Part shown: piece by piece, positions 8,869 through 22,617 of the stretch
Position numbering within the stretch: the first letter of the stretch is position 1
How the letters are laid out: every line of letters begins with the position of its first letter
Source of the DNA: Candidatus Bathyarchaeota archaeon
GTDB lineage: Archaea > Thermoproteota > Bathyarchaeia > Bathyarchaeales > Bathycorpusculaceae
Reading direction: 5' to 3'
Assembly: GCA_963720565.1 (NCBI GenBank)
Contig: CAVRFW010000009.1
Coordinates: 128,001 to 192,000, forward strand
DNA length: 64,000 nucleotides
The notes under the pieces: generated by a model
Database searches by the model: none
What the model saw: the letters and a program-made list of their open reading frames with translations, nothing else
What the model was told of the DNA's origin: nothing
Made by a program: the position numbers and the translations under genes

Positions 8869-9504
8869 CTAGAATTTTATTGAGTCTTCTGCTACTCCGT
8901 CTTTGGTTATGATTAGGAAATCAATGCCGTCTCCGCTCATTGCATCTCTGCTTATGGCTGATTTTATGGATCTTATAACCAATTCTTTCGCGTCTTTGAT
9001 TTTCATGCCTTCTTTGTAGCCTTCTTCCAAGACACCCATAGCGATTTCTGTTCCAGACCCCACTACTGCATACTTGTCAGGTATTAACGAGCCCAAGACA
9101 TCGAGAACATAGAGTGAAGCGCCTTCCCCGTCTAAACCGCCAACGATTGTTTGCGTTATCAAGGGTGCATAACGGCGGTTGAAGAGGATGTTTGCCATTA
9201 GCTTAGCTGCGGAGCGAACCGAAATCGGTCTGCCCACGTCCATGCTGAAGAGTTCAGCTTGTGCTTCCACTTCTCTAGCGAGGATTTGCATATCGCCTAC
9301 TAGTCCGGCGCATGCTACGCCTATCTGACTGGTGATTTTGAAGACTTTTTTGCCGCCTTTACTGGCAATAAAGTTACCGTATGTTACTCTTTTTTCAGCA
9401 GCGAGTATGACTCCATCGTGGCAGACCACTCCTACTGTGGTTGCGCCGGGAACCCATGCCAAACCGCCTTGCTGAGCTTGTGTTTGCGGTCCATATCCTT
9501 CCAT
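8869..9504 (-). CDS. psmB: 20S proteasome beta subunit, probably non-catalytic
   Basis: GATTVG, AAEKRVT, AGLVGDMQ, GSG, SRDAMSGDG. Confidence 0.93.
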   Translation of the reverse strand: MEGYGPQTQAQQGGLAWVPGATTVGVVCHDGVILAAEKRVTYGNFIASKGGKKVFKITSQIGVACAGLVGDMQILAREVEAQAELFSMDVGRPISVRSAAKLMANILFNRRYAPLITQTIVGGLDGEGASLYVLDVLGSLIPDKYAVVGSGTEIAMGVLEEGYKEGMKIKDAKELVIRSIKSAISRDAMSGDGIDFLIITKDGVAEDSIKF

Positions 9505-9650
9505 GTTTTTTCGCCTTTTCCCGTTGATATACACAAGACGAATTATTAAGCTTACTTATGCAGTTCTGGGAGTAATAGCAGCCATTACGAGGCGTTAAAG
9601 TAACGGCTATAAGGAGTAGATACGCTTTAGGTAAATGGAGAAAGAAGAGA

Positions 9651-13303: not shown

Positions 13304-14546
13304 ATGTTTAGGCAACTTATGACTTATGAAGAGGCAAAGAAGGCTATTCATGTTCATCTTAAGCCTGAAGCATTAGGTGGAGAGGAGCTTTCTCTGCTGG
13401 AATCACTCTCTCGCGTCTTAATGGAGAACATAACTTCCTCTCTTGATATTCCACCTTTCAACAGATCTACCGTTGACGGTTACGCGGTAGTAGCGGAGGA
13501 TACCTTCGGCGCAGAAGAAAACAAGCCTATAACCTTGAAGGTCTTAGGCGTTGTTAATGTGGGCGAGCTTCCTGAGACTAACCGTTGCAAAGAATGGAAC
13601 CGCGGAAATAGTTACTGGTGCTCCCATCCCCGAAGGCGCAGACGCAGTTGTTATGGTTGAGAACACTGAAAAAGCGGCTGATGAACTTCGCGTTTACACC
13701 GCTGTCGCAAAGAACGAAAATGTGATGAAGAAAGGTGCAGACATAAAAAAAGGCGAAATCATTCTCAAAGCGGGTCAGATTCTGGGTTCCTCGGAGATAG
13801 GGGTTCTAGCCGCTTTGGGATTAACAAAAGTAAAAGTTTTTCGTACACCCGTGGTGGCGGTTCTCTCCACTGGAGGAGAAGTAACTGAACCAGGCATGAA
13901 GTTGCCTCCTGGAAAGATTTATGACATTAACGCGTCCAGCCTCAGCGCTGCGGTCTTGGAGAGCGGGGGGCGACCGGTTTACATGGGTGTGGTTCCAGAT
14001 GATAAAAATGCGTTACGCAAAGCTTTAGAGCATGCTCTTGCTTCTGCGGACATTGTGTTGACTTCTGGAGGGGTTTCAGTAGGGCCGAAAGACATTACGC
14101 CGGAGACTGTCGCTTCTCTGGGTGAACCAGGGTTGATTGTTTGTGGAGTAGCTCTTAAACCTGGCAAACCCTTTACAGCGGCTTTTGCGGGTCGAAAACC
14201 TGTTTTCTCGATGCCTGGGCATCCCACTTCAGCTTTGCTGCTGTTTCATTTGTTTGTACGTCCGGTCATTCAGCTCTTGTCTGGTAGACCTGTACAGGAA
14301 AAAGCGCTTGTTAAAGCTGTGGCGGGTGCCAGAATGTTTTCAGCTAAGGGAAGGCGCACGTTTGTCATGGTTAAGCTGAAACGCGAAGGACCGGATAGAA
14401 TTGTTGCTTTGCCTGTTGAGACCGGAGCTTCGGGTGCAATAACGACTCTCGCGAAAGCTGACGGGTTCGTTGAGATTCCTGAAAACCAGCAGTTCATTGA
14501 TGCTGGAGAAGAAATTTCTGTAGCCCTTCTCAGGACTATTGTCTAG
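13304..14546 (+). CDS. moeA: Second MoeA paralogue, split by one frameshift near 13575
   Basis: ORF 13304-13660 (STVDGYA) continues in ORF 13551-14546 (TGAPIP, SGGVSVG, MPGHP). Confidence 0.9.
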
Positions 14547-16010: not shown

Positions 16011-18894
16011 CTATTCTATGAATATTGCTGGCTGATAAGGCGTAGCCATCGAAGCTCGCTGCTTAGGATCGTAGCGTTGCGCGTCGTTTTCGTTGTAAAC
16101 CGAGATTTCCGCCTTGAACCGGTCTTTTAGGAAGGGGATGGCTTCTTGGATAATTTCTTTCTCGTTGAGTTCCCTTATCTTTTGGATGTTCCCTTTTCTA
16201 TCGTTGGAGAGCTTCGCTAGTGATTTGATAACGCGTGGGACGAGTCCTGCAATCTCCTTCATGTGCGGCTTCAAATCGGGGTCAGCGGCTAACTCCTTCA
16301 TTATCTCGTTGATTTTCGGGTCTCCGGAAGTCGCTTTCTCTATGACTTTTAGGTATGCTTTCCACTTCCAGGGGGCAGCGGTGTAGAAGCATAGTCTTTT
16401 AGGCGTGATTTTTGTGGCTTTCAAGATGTTGAGTGTGTCGGCGATCATGTCTGTTATGATGTTCTCCTCTTCCTCTGCCTTGACGTCGATTTTGCCCTGT
16501 TCTACTCTGGGCCACTCGGCAAGGGCGATGAATCCCTTCTTTCCTGTTTTGCTCCAGAGCTCTTCGCATACGAACGGTGCGAAAGGAGCCATTAGTCTGA
16601 GCCATATTTCTAGGGCTTCGCGAACTGCTTTGGCTTCTGTTTTTCCTTTTCTTTGAGCGTACCAGCGGAAATCGTTCCAAGTTTCAAACAGTGCATTCTC
16701 TAAGGCTGTACGTGTTTTAAGCTCCTCAAGCGCCGCTGAGACTTGTCCTAATTCGTTGTTGTATTCTGCTGAGCAGCCATTTTTCCATATGCGTGGTTTC
16801 GTCGCTGCTTGCCGTCTCGATTATGTTAATGGCAAAGTTTTGCAGGGCTTCGAATTTGTTTTGGATTTCAGCGGCGTTCTCGCCTCTCCAGTCTGGGTCG
16901 TCCATGCCTTCAGCGCCTAACAACAGGGCGCATCGAGTGGCGTCTGCGCCGTAGCGGTCAACCGCTCCTTTCATTGTTACGAAGTTGCCCTTGGACTTGT
17001 GCATCTGTTTGCCCTCGATCATGAGCATCCCGTTTACACCTACGGCTCGGGGCCAAAGTTCGCGTGGAAACAATGCCGCGTGGTGGAAGATGCAGAAACT
17101 CAGATGGTTAGGCACCAGCTCTTTCGCTGAGACTCTAAGGTCGAAGGGATACCAGTACAGGAATTCTTCTCGCATTTCCTTCAACAGTTCCGTTGATATT
17201 CCAGATTCTTTGCTGACTTGGGCGGTTTCGCCTTTGCCGAAGAAAAGGTAGTCGAAGACTTCGCGCTTTAGCGCCTCAGGTTTTATGTTGTGTTGTCGTA
17301 TGTGTTTGTTTATTGTGTAGAAGGACATGTAGATTGTTGAGTCGCTGAGGGTTTCTATGATCCAGCCTTTTCCCCATGGCAGTGGTGTTCCGAAACCCGT
17401 GGTTCTGGCGCAAGCCCATTCTTTGAGCCAGTCGATTACTGTTATGAACCATTGCCTTGCTGATTCGGGGTAGATGTTCATTTGTGCAACTAGTTCTTTG
17501 GCTTTTTCTTTCCATGCGGAATCGGAGTAGTTCAGGAACCACTGGTCTGAGAGTATTTTAACAATGCATGGTGTCATGCAGCGGCATACCACAGATTCAG
17601 GTAGATCGTACATGCTGTCGGCTGCGCCTATCTTCTTGAAATCCTGTATGAGTATATCTTTGACTTCCCTGACTGTTTTTCCAGCGTACGGTCCACAGTT
17701 TTGCTTCAAGATTCCTCCGTGGAACTCTTTCTTGTAGAGCGTTTTGGTTGCTTCGTCCGCTCTTGGGTCATGTTGGTCTTTGACTCCCATCTGTTCAACC
17801 AGTTCCACTGCGGGGTACTCGCCGAAGCCCTCGACTTGTATGAGCGCAATAGGTTTTATCTGCTTAACAAATTCCGGGTCAATACCGAATTCTTGGAGCA
17901 CTTCAGGTTTTTCCTGCAGGTCTTTTAGTGCGAGCCAATCGTAGGGGGCGTGGGCAGGAACACTGTACACGACGCCAGTAGCCTGGTTCGCGTCGACAAA
18001 CCAGCCTGGCAATATCGGAAACTTGGCTTTTGTGATTGGGTTCTGGAAGCTTTTTCCGATTAGTTCTTTGCCTTTGAACTTGCGTTTCACTTCAACGGTT
18101 CTTTCTTGTTCCTTGAGTTTCTCCGCAGCTTCTTGGCTGACTATCCAGTTTTCCCCATTTACCTTCGCCTCTACATACGTGGCGTCGGGGTTTATCCACA
18201 TGTTTGTTATGCCATAGATAGTTTCAGGTCTAAACGTTGCCGCAGGCAGGAAAGTTCCATCGTCAAGCTTGTACTTTATTAGCGTGTACTCTTCGGGCGT
18301 GACGCCTTCGCCCACTTGGCGGTCATGGTCGCCGGTTGGGCTTTGATCTTTGGGGCACCAGACAACGGGGTGTGTTCCCCTCGTGACGTAACCCAATTCT
18401 CTAAGGCACTTGTATTGCCATTCGATGAATTTCTGGTAGGTTGGCATTATTGTGTTGAATTCTCTTCGCCAGTCAATCGAGAAACCGATACGCCTGGCAA
18501 TTGAGTGTCCTTCGTTAGTGTAATACTGCGCCATGTAAAGCGGGTCAACAAACTTTTTCAGCTCCTCCTCTGGTACGCCATCCATTTCCCGCAATACTCG
18601 AATGTATTCTGCGTCGCCCTTTGCGACGCGTTGGCTTGCCCCCAAAAGTGGTTGTCCAGTCCAGTGCCAAGACCAAGGCCACAGTACGTTGAAGCCTTGC
18701 ATGCGTTTGAAGCGTGCGTAAACGTCTACACGCGACGCTGTGAACGTGTGACCGACGTGCAGCGGACCATTCATGTAAGGATAGGGAAAAGTTACCATGA
18801 TTTTTTTGCGGTTGACGTCTGGGTCTGCTTCAAAAATGTGGGCTTGTTCCCAGCGTTTTAGCCATTTGCTCTCGTTTTCCTTGGTCTGACTCAT
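16011..18894 (-). CDS. leuS: Leucyl-tRNA synthetase (archaeal type), split by frameshift(s) around 16600-16750
   Basis: FPYPYMNGPLHVGH, TFRPET, SVPAHAPYD, IETLSDSTIY, QMHKS; C-terminal part in ORF 16011-16592. Confidence 0.95.
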
Positions 18895-18997
18895 GAAACT
18901 TGTTGAATTAAGTCTATGGCTATTAAGAGTTGTGTTTAAGGCCAACTGCAATTGGAAACGGACCTAAAAAGGTAAATAGCGCTCGCATCAATGAAAT

Positions 18998-20007
18998 ATG
19001 TTTGATGCTCAAATGTCCGATAAGAAGAGCCTCGTGAAACAGACAGTTGCTCTCCTTAGAAAGCGTGGTAAGAAATCTCTGGAAATCGCCCGACGTTCTA
19101 TTGAGCAAGATGAAATTAAGCACCAGCCCCTCGGAGATGCTCTTAGATATTTTGCTGACGAAATGTTCGCTCATATTGGGCACCCTGGCTTGCTCTCAGT
19201 TTACTGCGAAGCAGTAGGTGGCGATCCGGACAAGACAATTCAGATTGGCGCGGCAATGGTTATGCTGGTTTCTGCAGCAGATATTCATGACGATTTAATT
19301 GACGAGTCAACGGTGAAGAATGGCAAGCGAACTCTCTTGGGCAAGTACGGTAAGGACTTAGCGATTCTGGCAGGCGATGCGTTCCTAATGAAAGGCATGT
19401 ATCTCCTTGACGACGCAATGTCGAAATTCTCTATGGACAAGAGAAATGCGGTTCTTAAGTTGATAAAGCAGGCTTTTTTCGACCTCAGTAGTGCTGAAGC
19501 AGAAGAAGCTGCCCTCAGAGGTAACATTGACCTATCGGGACGCGTGTTTTTTGAGCTAATTAAGGGAAAGAGCGCGGTTTCAGAAACAACTGGCAGAATA
19601 GGGGCAGTTCTTGCAGACGGGACAGAAGAAGACTTGCAGACTCTTGGCGAGATAGGTTACATCGTAGGTTTGCTCAGCACGATTAGAGACGAGTTTATAG
19701 ACGTTTTCGAACCCGACGAACTCAAAAACAGGTTTAATAGGGAAATTTTGCCACTTCCTTTGCTTTACGTTTTTCAGGACTCAGCAGAAGAAAAATCGAA
19801 TCTTGGAGTTGTTACGAGAAGACAAAATAACAAAGAAGAATACTGAGCAAATTGTCAGAATTGTAATGGAAGCCAAAGAAACAAAGGACATTGAAGGATG
19901 AGATGCGTTTGCTAATTGAGAGGGGTTTAACTTCCTTGGCAACACTCAGAGGTGAAAAAGAGCCTCTACGACTGCTACTAGAATCCGCAGCGGAAGACCT
20001 ATATTAA
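18998..20007 (+). CDS. Trans-prenyltransferase-fold protein with degenerate chain-elongation motifs (ComQ-like); two apparent frameshifts near 19790 and 19890
   Basis: FARM DDLID, AILAGD, second motif DEFID; C-terminus read manually in other frames as KNRILELLREDK...LLLESAAEDLY* ending at 20007. Confidence 0.8.
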
Positions 20008-20016
20008 TAAGCAACG

Positions 20017-20037
20017 CTCGAAGTAAAAAAATTCGAG
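20017..20037. terminator. Hairpin CTCGAA-N9-TTCGAG containing a T7 tract on the minus strand, between convergent genes
   Basis: 6-bp perfect inverted repeat; A7 at 20025-20031. Confidence 0.55.
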
Positions 20038-20043
20038 GGTATT

Positions 20044-20088
20044 TTACTTCCAGAATTTAACTCTAACCGGAACTTTGGCTTTTTGCAT
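20044..20088 (-). CDS. Unannotated 14-aa peptide MQKAKVPVRVKFWK (candidate prenylated-peptide precursor)
   Basis: ATG at 20088, TAA at 20044; GAGGGG 8 nt upstream; TTTTAAG box at 20137-20131; terminator downstream; no upstream in-frame ATG/GTG/TTG before the TGA. Confidence 0.6.
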   Translation of the reverse strand: MQKAKVPVRVKFWK

Positions 20089-20096
20089 GAATCCTT

Positions 20097-20143
20097 CCCC
20101 TCTTGTGTATATCTGTTGTACAGTATAGAGCTTAAAAGGTTTG
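20097..20143 (-). promoter_or_regulatory. Putative BRE/TATA (AAACC-TTTTAAG) and SD (GAGGGG) of the peptide gene
   Basis: Spacing fits an archaeal promoter with a leader of about 20 nt. Confidence 0.5.
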
Positions 20144-20233
20144 CGTTTGCCTCATGGACTCTGAATCCAATTCTTCAATTCTGAACCTTTATTTTGTGTT
20201 CAAAAACTAGGTATTCAATCGGTAAAAGTCTCA

Positions 20234-21467
20234 ATGCTAAGACGACTACTGTCAGGACTCACTCTAAGAGCTGCGTTTCTGAGTGTAATGATAGTGTCCA
20301 ATGCGTTCGTTTGGTATTACCTTGTAGACGACATTATTGTAGGACTGTCAGCAACACTATCCAATGACTATATTACCCAGTTGCAGATATGGGCAACGTA
20401 TTTTGCCGCGCTCATCGGAGCAGCTTTTGTTGGAGCGCACCTGTCAAGTAGGTTTGAGAGCAAGAAACGATTTCTTTCTATTTGGATGCTTTTGGGAGTC
20501 GTTTTACCTTTTGTTTCCCTTTTGGTCAATCCACAGAACGTTTGGGAGTTAATTCTGCTGGGAATCGGTTTCAGCGTTTCCTTAGGTTTTGGATTGCCCT
20601 GCTGCATGGAGTATTTCACGAGTTATAACTCGGTGGAAACACGCGGGAGAATAAGTGGTTTTGTTTTTCTCTTCACGGGTTTGTGTGTCGTAATGTTGAC
20701 AAGTATTCCAGACGGCGACCTTCTTACACAGACCCTGATTGCTTCAATATGGAGGACTATAGGGTTGCTATCCTTCGGTCTCGTAAAGTCCAGCAAAATC
20801 TAGGGTCTCTGAAGGCAAAGCGACCTCTTATAATTCGATACTCAGGGATCGATCTGTCCTTCTGTACTTAGTTCCCTGGATAATGTTCTCCCTAGTAAAT
20901 TACCTCGCTGCACCAGTATTAGACAGGGTGTTCAGTGACGCGTCGATGGCGGATACTTTAGATACTCTGTCTTTAGTCGAGAACGGCTTAGCAGGAGGCT
21001 TTGCAGTCGTTGGAGGGTTCTTGGCGGATGCAGTCGGACGCAAACGCATGGCAATTACTGGGTTTGTTGCGCTTGGTCTTGGTTATGCAATTTTGGGTAT
21101 ATCACCTTTAGATCTTAATGCGTGGATTTTCCACACTATTGCCGACGGTTTAGCTTGGGGAATGCTGTTAGTGTTGTTTGTTACAACACTGTGGGGTGAT
21201 TTAAGCCACAATACACCAAGCGAAAAGTATTATGCAGTGGGCGTTTTCCCCTTTTTCTTGTCAAGATTTCTTCCTTGGGTAATTAAGGATCAACTCGTTA
21301 ATGCAATTCCTGATTCCGCAATCTTTTCTTTCACAGCCTTCTTCTTGTTCATAGCAGTTCTGCCATTGGTTTATGCGCCTGAGACTCTGCCTGAAAAAGT
21401 CATGAAGAAAAGAGAGCTCACGCTTTATGTCGCGAAAGCTCAGGAAATCGCGGAAAAATACTATTAA
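20234..21467 (+). CDS. MFS transporter, split by frameshift(s) around 20790-20880
   Basis: About 12 TM segments over two ORFs; motif A GFLADAVGRK; C-terminal PETL. Confidence 0.85.
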
Positions 21468-21492
21468 ACTCGTATCTCGTTTACGATAATCC

Positions 21493-22617
21493 ATGTTCTT
21501 CCACGTAATCCTAACGACTGAATGTAACTTGCAGTGCCGTTACTGCTTTGGTGAGACGCTTGAAGATTTCGATGAGGATTTCGCCGAAATGGATGTGGAT
21601 TATTCCCTTCCAAAAAAGGTTGCTTACGATTTCAAATTGCTTGCTAGGTTTTGCGGGCGAGATTCCGAATGTGTCTTGACTTTCTATGGAGGAGAACCCC
21701 TCCTCTGTGTTGATGAGATAAAGCAGATTATGGATTTGGCGAAGCCGCGTCACTTCATGATCCAAACAAACGGGCTTTTCCTGGATCGTTTGCCTGCTGA
21801 GTATGTTAACCGTTTTCATACGATTCTTGTTTCTATCGACGGGGAAGAGGCTTTGACCGATTCTTGCCGGGGGAAAGGCACTTTCAGGAAGGTCGTTGAT
21901 AACTTGAAGTTGATTATGCGGAACGGTTTCAGCGGAGAGTTGATTGCGAGGATGACGGTTATGGAACCAACGGACATTTACAAGCAAGTGACGTGGCTGC
22001 TAAGCAACGATGAGTTTTCGTTTTCTTCTGTTCACTGGCAGTTGAATGCTGGTTTCTGGGGAAACGATTATTCAAGGCGAGACTTCAAACGGTGGAGCGA
22101 GTCGTCCTATATTCCAGGTGTCGAAAGGTTGGTGCATTTCTGGGTTGACCAAATGGAAACGCATGGAAAAGTGGCTAAACTTTATCCCTTACTGGGAATT
22201 GCCAACTCACTCCTGCGAGGCGAGAAGGAGAGTTTGCTCCGGTGCGGGGGCGGATGGATAAACTACGCGGTGCAAACCGACGGTTACATTATTCCGTGCC
22301 CTACAATGTGGGGAATGAAAGACTACTACGTTGGACACCTAAGCAATGCGAACCCGCTTACCCTCAAGAAGTTCTTCGTCGGTGTGCCATGCAGTGAATG
22401 TGAAATTCTGAATGTATGCGGAGGCCGTTGCCTCTACGCGAACATAACCAATCGCTGGAACAGAGAAGAATACGCCACAGTATGCAACACTGTGAAAGGG
22501 CTGATAAACGCCGTGAATATGGAGCTGCCGCGCATAAAACGACTGATAGGGGAGAAAAAAGTGGGCTTGAAGGACTTTGAATTCGTGAAGTACAACGGGT
22601 GCGAGATAATCCCTTAA
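21493..22617 (+). CDS. Radical SAM/SPASM protein (AF0577-like family, putative peptide-modifying)
   Basis: CNLQCRYC, GGEP, CGGG..DG.IIPCP, CSEC..VCGGRC, C-terminal YNGCEIIP. Confidence 0.85.
   Translation: MFFHVILTTECNLQCRYCFGETLEDFDEDFAEMDVDYSLPKKVAYDFKLLARFCGRDSECVLTFYGGEPLLCVDEIKQIMDLAKPRHFMIQTNGLFLDRLPAEYVNRFHTILVSIDGEEALTDSCRGKGTFRKVVDNLKLIMRNGFSGELIARMTVMEPTDIYKQVTWLLSNDEFSFSSVHWQLNAGFWGNDYSRRDFKRWSESSYIPGVERLVHFWVDQMETHGKVAKLYPLLGIANSLLRGEKESLLRCGGGWINYAVQTDGYIIPCPTMWGMKDYYVGHLSNANPLTLKKFFVGVPCSECEILNVCGGRCLYANITNRWNREEYATVCNTVKGLINAVNMELPRIKRLIGEKKVGLKDFEFVKYNGCEIIP

Follow-up and report, generated by a model that had tools for sequence, protein, structure and literature searches.

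A cassette in which an enzyme with the trans-isoprenyl-diphosphate-synthase (trans-IDS) fold is encoded beside a precursor peptide of 14 amino acids and a membrane protein of the major facilitator superfamily (MFS) was identified in the genome of a Candidatus Bathyarchaeota archaeon (assembly GCA_963720565.1), within positions 128,001 to 192,000 of contig CAVRFW010000009.1, a stretch of 64,000 nucleotides referred to here as the window. On balance, we favour as its best explanation an archaeal system for a peptide that is made by ribosomes and modified after translation (RiPP), whose product would be a prenylated lipopeptide with strain-specific variants; prenylation of the peptide by the enzyme is probable. 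A preliminary description of this DNA had proposed a ComQ/ComX-like system of four genes, the fourth encoding a radical S-adenosylmethionine (rSAM) enzyme. All four were recovered at the positions originally given, from the sequence, the open reading frames (ORFs) and matches to PF00348 and TIGR04084, though that picture covered neither an operator linked to PadR regulators nor the paralogous cassettes with long precursors described below.

The peptide ORF, MQKAKVPVRVKFWK, lies at positions 20044-20088 of the minus strand, convergent with the enzyme gene (18998..20007, plus strand; 36 nt from stop to stop) and divergent from the MFS gene, and consists of a basic N-terminal part, P-V-R and a tail ending in Trp-Lys. 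The expression signals originally claimed for it were located, namely a ribosome-binding site (RBS; 20093..20102, minus strand), a TATA box (20131-20137) and a B recognition element (BRE)-like site (20140-20145) forming a promoter (20131..20145, minus strand) whose position is conserved in 70 promoters, and, downstream, an inverted repeat (20017..20037) whose T-run is on the minus strand and which, from its sequence, probably terminates transcription between the two convergent genes. In 23 of 40 relatives the enzyme has a close homologue (E < 1e-40) distinct from the housekeeping synthase, and 22 of these 23 loci, the remaining one being cut off, carry a short basic antisense ORF between the enzyme and MFS genes. 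For a wider comparison one genome per species was scanned, giving 208 relatives, of which the best 80 loci were retained; these comprise 73 of the window's type (type I), five rearranged loci, one orphan enzyme and one cut-off locus. A test that made no use of Trp or P-x-R, in which an RBS and a basic ORF of 9-30 amino acids were sought behind the enzyme, was positive on the antisense strand in 71 of the 79 usable loci versus 3 of 79 on the sense strand, with 4.8 expected from shuffles and 59 positives in 1318 control windows of the host genome. Two of the 71 positives are chance ORFs, the peptide lying elsewhere in those loci, and four further true peptides were found by hand. The small ORF expected beside the prenyltransferase homologues is hence conserved.

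The 73 type I peptides (71 distinct) are basic and 12-20 amino acids in length, and the motif best kept among them is P-x-R (68/73). At this anchor every one of the four Pro and six Arg codons is in use, a free choice that argues for selection on the protein. By the outcome of the blind test the 14-codon ORF is a real gene. Inside it, the near-strain changes listed number at least two, one synonymous and one from ATG to GTG. A tail Trp is present in 59 of the 73 peptides, as the last residue in 17 and the second-last in 39, whilst the Trp-less tails carry Tyr (7), Phe (4) or no aromatic residue (3). The C-terminal Trp that had been anticipated near homologues of the enzyme is therefore the commonest and apparently the ancestral state, but 14 of 73 peptides lack it and P-x-R is better kept. 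Among the start codons, ACG behind a very strong RBS was observed in six loci (L035, L041, L052, L053, L054 and L056), and TTG and GTG in others.

The enzyme, labelled as a geranylgeranyl diphosphate (GGPP) or polyprenyl synthase in public records, was assigned from its PF00348 match, its motifs, its fold and near-strain contigs as a remodelled trans-IDS and candidate peptide prenyltransferase. An AlphaFold model of a relative's enzyme (pLDDT 94.5) has the all-alpha trans-IDS fold, and the best match in both sequence and structure is the GGPP synthase of P. horikoshii (1wy0; E 4.5e-38; TM 0.83), an archaeal short-chain synthase from which the cassette enzyme nonetheless differs in having lost the residues that bind isopentenyl diphosphate (IPP); the IdsA profile NF040698 gave 89.5 bits against a cut-off of 468. 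In elongating synthases IPP is bound by the Lys and two Arg of an N-terminal K-R-x-R, a His and an Arg of the second loop. These five residues occur, in that order, in 0, 0, 18, 0 and 6 of 99 family rows, as opposed to 5/5 in housekeeping synthases. The first Asp-rich motif, the Lys/Arg that follows it and the Lys/Arg of the KT motif, these two basic residues holding the allylic diphosphate, are kept in 99 of 99 rows, and the second motif is near-intact as D-[ED]-x-x-D, its first position being Asp in 56, Glu in 27 and Asn in 10 of the 99 and its fifth Asp being kept in 96. An Asp specific to the family stands three residues ahead of the first motif in 97 of 99 rows. With the allylic site and the Mg residues kept and the IPP residues lost, the enzyme likely ionises a prenyl donor and requires an acceptor other than IPP. 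Small residues before the first motif go with a long product in prenyl synthases, and the residues there in this family are small, which suggests a long donor. A canonical GGPP synthase is encoded separately in the host genome, and an archaeal GGPP synthase is the likely source of the family. Forms of about 500 amino acids with an extra N-terminal half of enzyme (P0001-P0009; L004), and tandem enzyme genes in some genomes, were also observed.

With ComQ/ComX the cassette shares an enzyme of the trans-IDS fold that lies next to a short precursor carrying a Trp close to its C-terminus. In the accessible parts of the sources, a Gln before the second motif is proposed to recognise the indole NH in PalQ and Ord1 (PMC13290415, PMC10853753), whilst in StheQ the Asn one turn further on matters most (bioRxiv 10.64898/2026.08.29.745113). 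This Gln, found in ComQ and retained in both PalQ and StheQ, is present in 0 of the 99 archaeal rows, and because of its absence the enzyme is, by sequence, not a member of the ComQ family. The archaeal second motif likewise differs from the N-D pseudo-motif of ComQ and StheQ, and resembles that of PalQ in keeping two Asp. Of the ComQ-like degenerate enzyme first envisaged, then, a non-elongating trans-IDS fold stands, but the motif is near-intact, the Gln is lacking and the closest relative is an archaeal GGPP synthase. The comQXPA locus is described, in the part of PMC4008528 available, as four co-oriented genes including the ComP kinase and the ComA regulator, with a ComX of 52-73 amino acids; the archaeal precursor has 12-20, its gene is convergent with that of the enzyme, and MFS and PadR proteins take the place of ComP and ComA. 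The earlier remarks that the peptide is far shorter than ComX and that no ComP-type kinase adjoins it therefore hold. With PalX and StheX, whose prenylated Trp is last or second from the C-terminus as stated in the accessible parts of PMC10853753 and bioRxiv 10.64898/2026.08.29.745113, the archaeal peptides share a Trp in one of these two positions in 56 of 73 cases.

Ord1, a farnesyltransferase of free Trp with the same fold (PDB 9v4g-j), ranked fourth in the Foldseek search at 24-26% identity, which could indicate that the cassette enzyme makes a small prenylated metabolite for export by the MFS protein, or that it only binds the peptide, the latter being a regulator or a Trp-sensing leader. 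Orphan enzymes exist, the ACG starts in six loci could be regulatory, and short tandem-Trp peptides recall the bacterial trp attenuator leaders. Ord1 itself acts on its small molecule with Q216/D219, and that Gln is absent from the archaeal family. Against this alternative, in 73 of 80 loci the peptide gene has no gene of its own strand downstream. Identical tandem copies, conservation at the protein level with free codons and a secreted protease in some loci fit a product better, as do long folded partners that end in Trp and pass co-folding, so we consider this alternative distinctly improbable.

Given prenylation, Trp is quite probably the acceptor in the clade to which the window belongs. 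A quick tree without bootstrap was built from 112 enzyme rows, four duplicates and one cut-off locus being left out and five archaeal housekeeping synthases serving as outgroup. It places the window's enzyme in a Trp clade. The Trp-less peptides fall inside Trp-bearing ones, namely a 12-member clade with a support of 99, a group with Tyr and one lone row. In the five rearranged loci (5/80) the peptide gene stands directly behind a gene for a trypsin-like protease with a signal-peptide-like N-terminus (L157 is a sixth such locus), and the peptide remains with the enzyme and MFS genes despite the changed gene order; all five peptides keep Trp-Trp and lack P-x-R. Because Trp-less peptides are nested and the rearranged loci keep Trp-Trp without P-x-R, we regard Trp as the acceptor in the ancestral state, and P-x-R as a site at which the peptide would be recognised or cut. 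The invariant Arg was also considered as acceptor and was lowered in rank, as both the protease-linked and the long-partner types have Trp without P-x-R.

A broader form of that alternative places the prenyl group at a non-Trp site (the Arg guanidinium, the new N-terminus after cleavage, or the C-terminus) and makes the aromatic tail a specificity code read by the MFS protein. It draws on P-x-R in 68 of 73 peptides, on the Arg kept in Trp-less peptides, and on an acceptor side that has lost basic residues, gained an Asp and lacks the Trp-recognition Gln. It is nevertheless quite unlikely, for, as with the protease-linked peptides, P-x-R is absent from the paralogues with long precursors, which retain Trp or Tyr, and the Trp-less peptides appear derived. 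The enzymes of the 12-member Trp-less clade show changes of their own close to the active site, although one clade is one event and does not demonstrate co-evolution. Furthermore, Trp is the residue modified by every trans-IDS-like peptide prenyltransferase so far characterised, as far as the accessible part of PMC13290415 states.

The MFS gene (20234..21467, plus strand), assigned by PF07690, a structural model and a fold search, encodes a protein with a hypervariable N-terminal half. Fold searching gave generic matches only (OxlT, GLUT, NorA and VMAT; TM 0.6-0.7), with no clue to direction or substrate. Variation was assessed in the 34 of 80 loci in which the enzyme, MFS and rSAM genes are all intact, and median identities across the 561 pairs were 0.42 for the enzyme, 0.27 for the N-half and 0.48 for the C-half of the MFS protein, and 0.69 for the rSAM protein. 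L068 and L078, for example, have an rSAM identity of 0.96 alongside 0.44 for the enzyme and 0.22 for the MFS N-half, and between the window and the same-genus genome G002 the leucyl-tRNA synthetase (LeuRS) is ~90% identical, the enzyme 47% and the N-half 31%. After removal of the rSAM distance, enzyme and N-half distances still correlate at 0.60, the pairs not being independent. By these comparisons the enzyme, peptide and MFS N-half diverge jointly whilst the flanks stay alike, a behaviour similar to that of comQXP pherotypes, which makes the N-half a likely specificity element. In Bacillus, comQ, comX and ComP's N-terminal domain are jointly hypervariable, and there too an enzyme, a peptide and part of a membrane protein are polymorphic against conserved flanks, according to the accessible part of PMC4008528.

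A pherotype-specific cell-cell signal appears the likeliest role and, given prenylation, we think a signal reasonably likely in preference to a toxin. The same prenylation could instead yield a cationic, Trp-rich antimicrobial or kin-discrimination lipopeptide, with the MFS protein as its cognate exporter and self-protection pump under PadR control. The peptides are short, strongly basic and aromatic-tailed, tandem copies would raise dosage, joint diversification suits toxin-immunity pairs as well as pherotypes, and PadR-family regulators often control efflux. Prenylation is also said, in the available portion of PMC13290415, to raise the antimicrobial activity of cationic peptides. Nonetheless, in 36 of 48 genomes of the window's family the cassette occupies a fixed place in the chromosome, usually as a single copy, the product would have only 3-9 residues were the leader cut at P-x-R, and the same operator occurs at PadR genes and at some unlinked genes for secreted proteins; a toxin is hence regarded as unlikely.

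The operator is a palindrome with the core TGT-N3-ACA (20114..20122 in the window, minus strand), situated just behind the conserved TATA box in the interval to the start site. Of 70 peptide promoters, 60 have it no more than 60 nt from the start, whereas shuffles gave 1.1 with a maximum of 5. A matrix built on the peptide-promoter sites alone, with scores of at least 14 counted, also recognised PadR_A, one family of PadR genes, at 24 of 31 promoters, versus 1 of 21 for the other PadR type; elsewhere it recognised 1 of 80 enzyme, 0 of 55 rSAM and 7 of 518 other genes. PadR genes flank ~36 of the 80 loci and are unlinked in the host genome, where the three best matrix matches are promoters of copies of the same PadR gene and the peptide promoter comes next. 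We infer from these sites that PadR binds the shared operator. As a lead to a wider regulon, 31 exact operator matches versus 12 control matches were counted in five genomes, the other sites standing ahead of secreted-looking proteins, and the host genome's homologues of those genes are mostly without the site. In two families, homologues of a small membrane-anchored Cys-rich protein have the operator ~31 nt upstream (L180/L183 in G040; L182 in G012); no homologue of this protein was found in the host genome. The three PadR copies of the host genome are near-identical (C7:368-3658, C10:52104-55635 and C12:69393-69803), two of them beside similar ClpB-like stretches; a mixture of strains in the assembly, or DNA of foreign origin, may account for them.

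Two further enzyme-partner-MFS loci, C4 and C11, are present in the host genome, with partner ORFs of 73 and 76 amino acids. The C4 type occurs in 7 of 301 genomes of the class; eight aligned C4-type partners end in Lys-Trp/Tyr-Pro plus three residues, and six C11-type partners (76-97 amino acids) end in Trp or Trp-Ala. These archaeal partners of 73-97 amino acids are similar in size to StheX (69 amino acids). PalX carries an NHLP leader and lies next to a kinase, whereas the archaeal long partners match no NHLP or Nif11 model; such a label was considered and dropped, as the Pfam matches were sub-cut-off noise. There was no match to PF05952 among them, and a protein atlas search with the 73-residue partner gave no usable hit. 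Co-folding of a C4-type enzyme with its 73-residue partner scored 0.79, as against 0.00 for the best of three controls. It thereby passed a mark that 116 of 157 solved complexes attained, as did 2 of 215 mismatched pairs, a calibration that is only roughly valid here because own alignments of eight rows were used. At least 74% of contacts are common to the runs, the partner pLDDT is at least 79, and the interface lies between the partner's first helix and the enzyme segment after the second motif. This modelling supports binding within the family; it does not extend to catalysis or to the window's 14-mer. By eye, the cassette with the 73-residue partner adjoins terminase- and integrase-fragment-like genes (L111:810-3715, 9296-9538; L112:10144-11613), and it may lie on or beside an integrated element.

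The peptide gene, monocistronic and with strong expression signals, accompanies the enzyme and MFS genes, and all three diversify jointly. Under the favoured explanation, the enzyme would hold the peptide by its basic leader and P-x-R, next to the enzyme's second Asp-rich motif, and a prenyl chain, probably C20 from GGPP or longer, would be transferred to a Trp near the C-terminus (Trp13 here). Cleavage of the leader would follow, for which some lineages would use the secreted trypsin-like protease encoded with the cassette. The MFS protein would move or sense the product via its variable N-half. A PadR-family regulator acting at the operator shared by peptide and PadR promoters would close a feedback loop.

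Several observations weigh against this reading. In addition to the missing Gln, tail Trp is wanting in 14 of 73 peptides, three of them without any aromatic residue, and their enzymes retain the first motif. The window's cassette contains no sensor kinase and no processing protease, and PadR binding is inferred only. The co-fold left the Trp tail of the 73-residue partner unplaced; the paralogue used in it has a degenerate KT Lys and second motif, and its pass may reflect likeness to solved complexes. The acidic patch after the second motif, proposed to bind the leader, has a median charge of -6 versus -4 in housekeeping synthases, a difference so weak that charge complementarity was set aside as evidence. 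Finally, L102 has an orphan enzyme with no such peptide seen, and no such peptide was seen beside the enzyme in the five loci of families f61 and f68 (5/5), which count against a fixed link between enzyme and peptide.

The rSAM/SPASM gene (21493..22617, plus strand) begins 25 nt after the MFS gene and is a true member of the TIGR04084 (rSAM_AF0577) family (295 bits versus a cut-off of 225), for which we know of no substrate. Its inclusion in the pathway, as originally supposed, was not upheld. The gene is single-copy in 30 of 41 genomes, including nine without this cassette type, and among 24 cassette genomes it is adjacent in 16, unlinked in five and not found in three. Where the cassette is exchanged, its identity remains at 0.82-0.96, and it shows no joint diversification. 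Because the linkage is lineage-limited and the gene does not diversify with the cassette, it is treated as a flank, a linked neighbour probably outside the pathway. That it is a true second maturase which cross-links the peptide would suit its following the MFS gene in 49 of 80 loci, its closeness in the window and the fact that SPASM enzymes, by their family names, often mature peptides; its presence in genomes without the cassette type, as well as in Sulfolobus, the unlinked or absent copies, its constancy during cassette exchange and the lack of the operator at its start make this very improbable.

The enzyme family was detected in 62 of 301 genomes of the class (36 of 48 in the window's family and all 12 of family f7). 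Another 25 genomes with it lie outside the class, in a set of 401 from the phylum. Bathyarchaeia or Bathyarchaeota stands in the titles of 75 of the 80 retained loci. In f46, a family of another class, the peptide and its Trp tail occur in 8 of 8 loci examined, four of which (L138, L139, L146 and L147) hold two or more identical tandem copies of the peptide, each with an RBS. A minimal version of eight residues was seen in L151. Four loci titled Nanoarchaeia (L063), Caldiserica (L081), Anaerolineales (L090) and Actinomycetota (L102) are nested among Bathyarchaeia enzymes; three of them keep the whole cassette and are likely mis-binned, and L102 has the enzyme alone among bacterial-looking genes. 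A geranylgeranyl-reductase-like flavoprotein gene, which could serve to saturate the prenyl chain, adjoins the enzyme gene in L076, L081 and L085 (in L085 with a weak PF22578 match), with look-alikes in L113, L153, L154 and L155. A GNAT gene is present in 4 of 80 loci. In 15 of 80, a small winged-helix and MinD/ParA-like ATPase pair flanks the MFS gene, as it does at C11:42253-43495 in the host genome and in L113, L155 and L156, sometimes, by eye, with RecA/KaiC-like ATPases; this pair could be an alternative signal output.

The enzyme gene contains two frameshifts, near 19785 and 19895, and the MFS gene one at 20801. The base at 20801 is absent from near-strain contigs (2 of 4 public DNA runs, X1 and X3), and the stretch 19782-20024 spans 239 nt, not 241, in a near-strain contig (run X1). 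The MoeA-like (13304-14546) and LeuRS (16011-18951) genes of the window are also frameshifted, pointing to a high indel rate in the assembly. On the evidence of these contigs, and with LeuRS and MoeA split too, the frameshifts in the enzyme and MFS genes look like assembly errors, in agreement with the indels first reported for the enzyme.

Full-text literature searches, with subscription journals mostly outside them and archaeal nodes possible in work beyond them, returned no archaeal peptide prenyltransferase or peptide pheromone, in line with the initial statement that no such archaeal system was known to its author; the cassette is apparently undescribed in print. More tentatively, and with less than an even chance of being right in full, we propose that a peptide-pheromone quorum-sensing system evolved from an archaeal GGPP synthase, independently of ComQ, in Bathyarchaeia and a second class of the phylum. 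It would have precursors of 8-20 residues, a new acceptor chemistry (no Gln, and some clades Trp-less), a pherotype set by the MFS N-half, and feedback by a PadR pair through an operator that also controls secreted or surface proteins. If true, no earlier case of peptide-based signalling with diverse pherotypes would be on record for archaea. The cassette, common in one of the most abundant groups of sediment archaea, would permit a cheap and direct test of archaeal lipopeptide signalling, and its 71 distinct enzyme-peptide pairs, some of them Trp-less, may offer new prenylation chemistry on very short tags.

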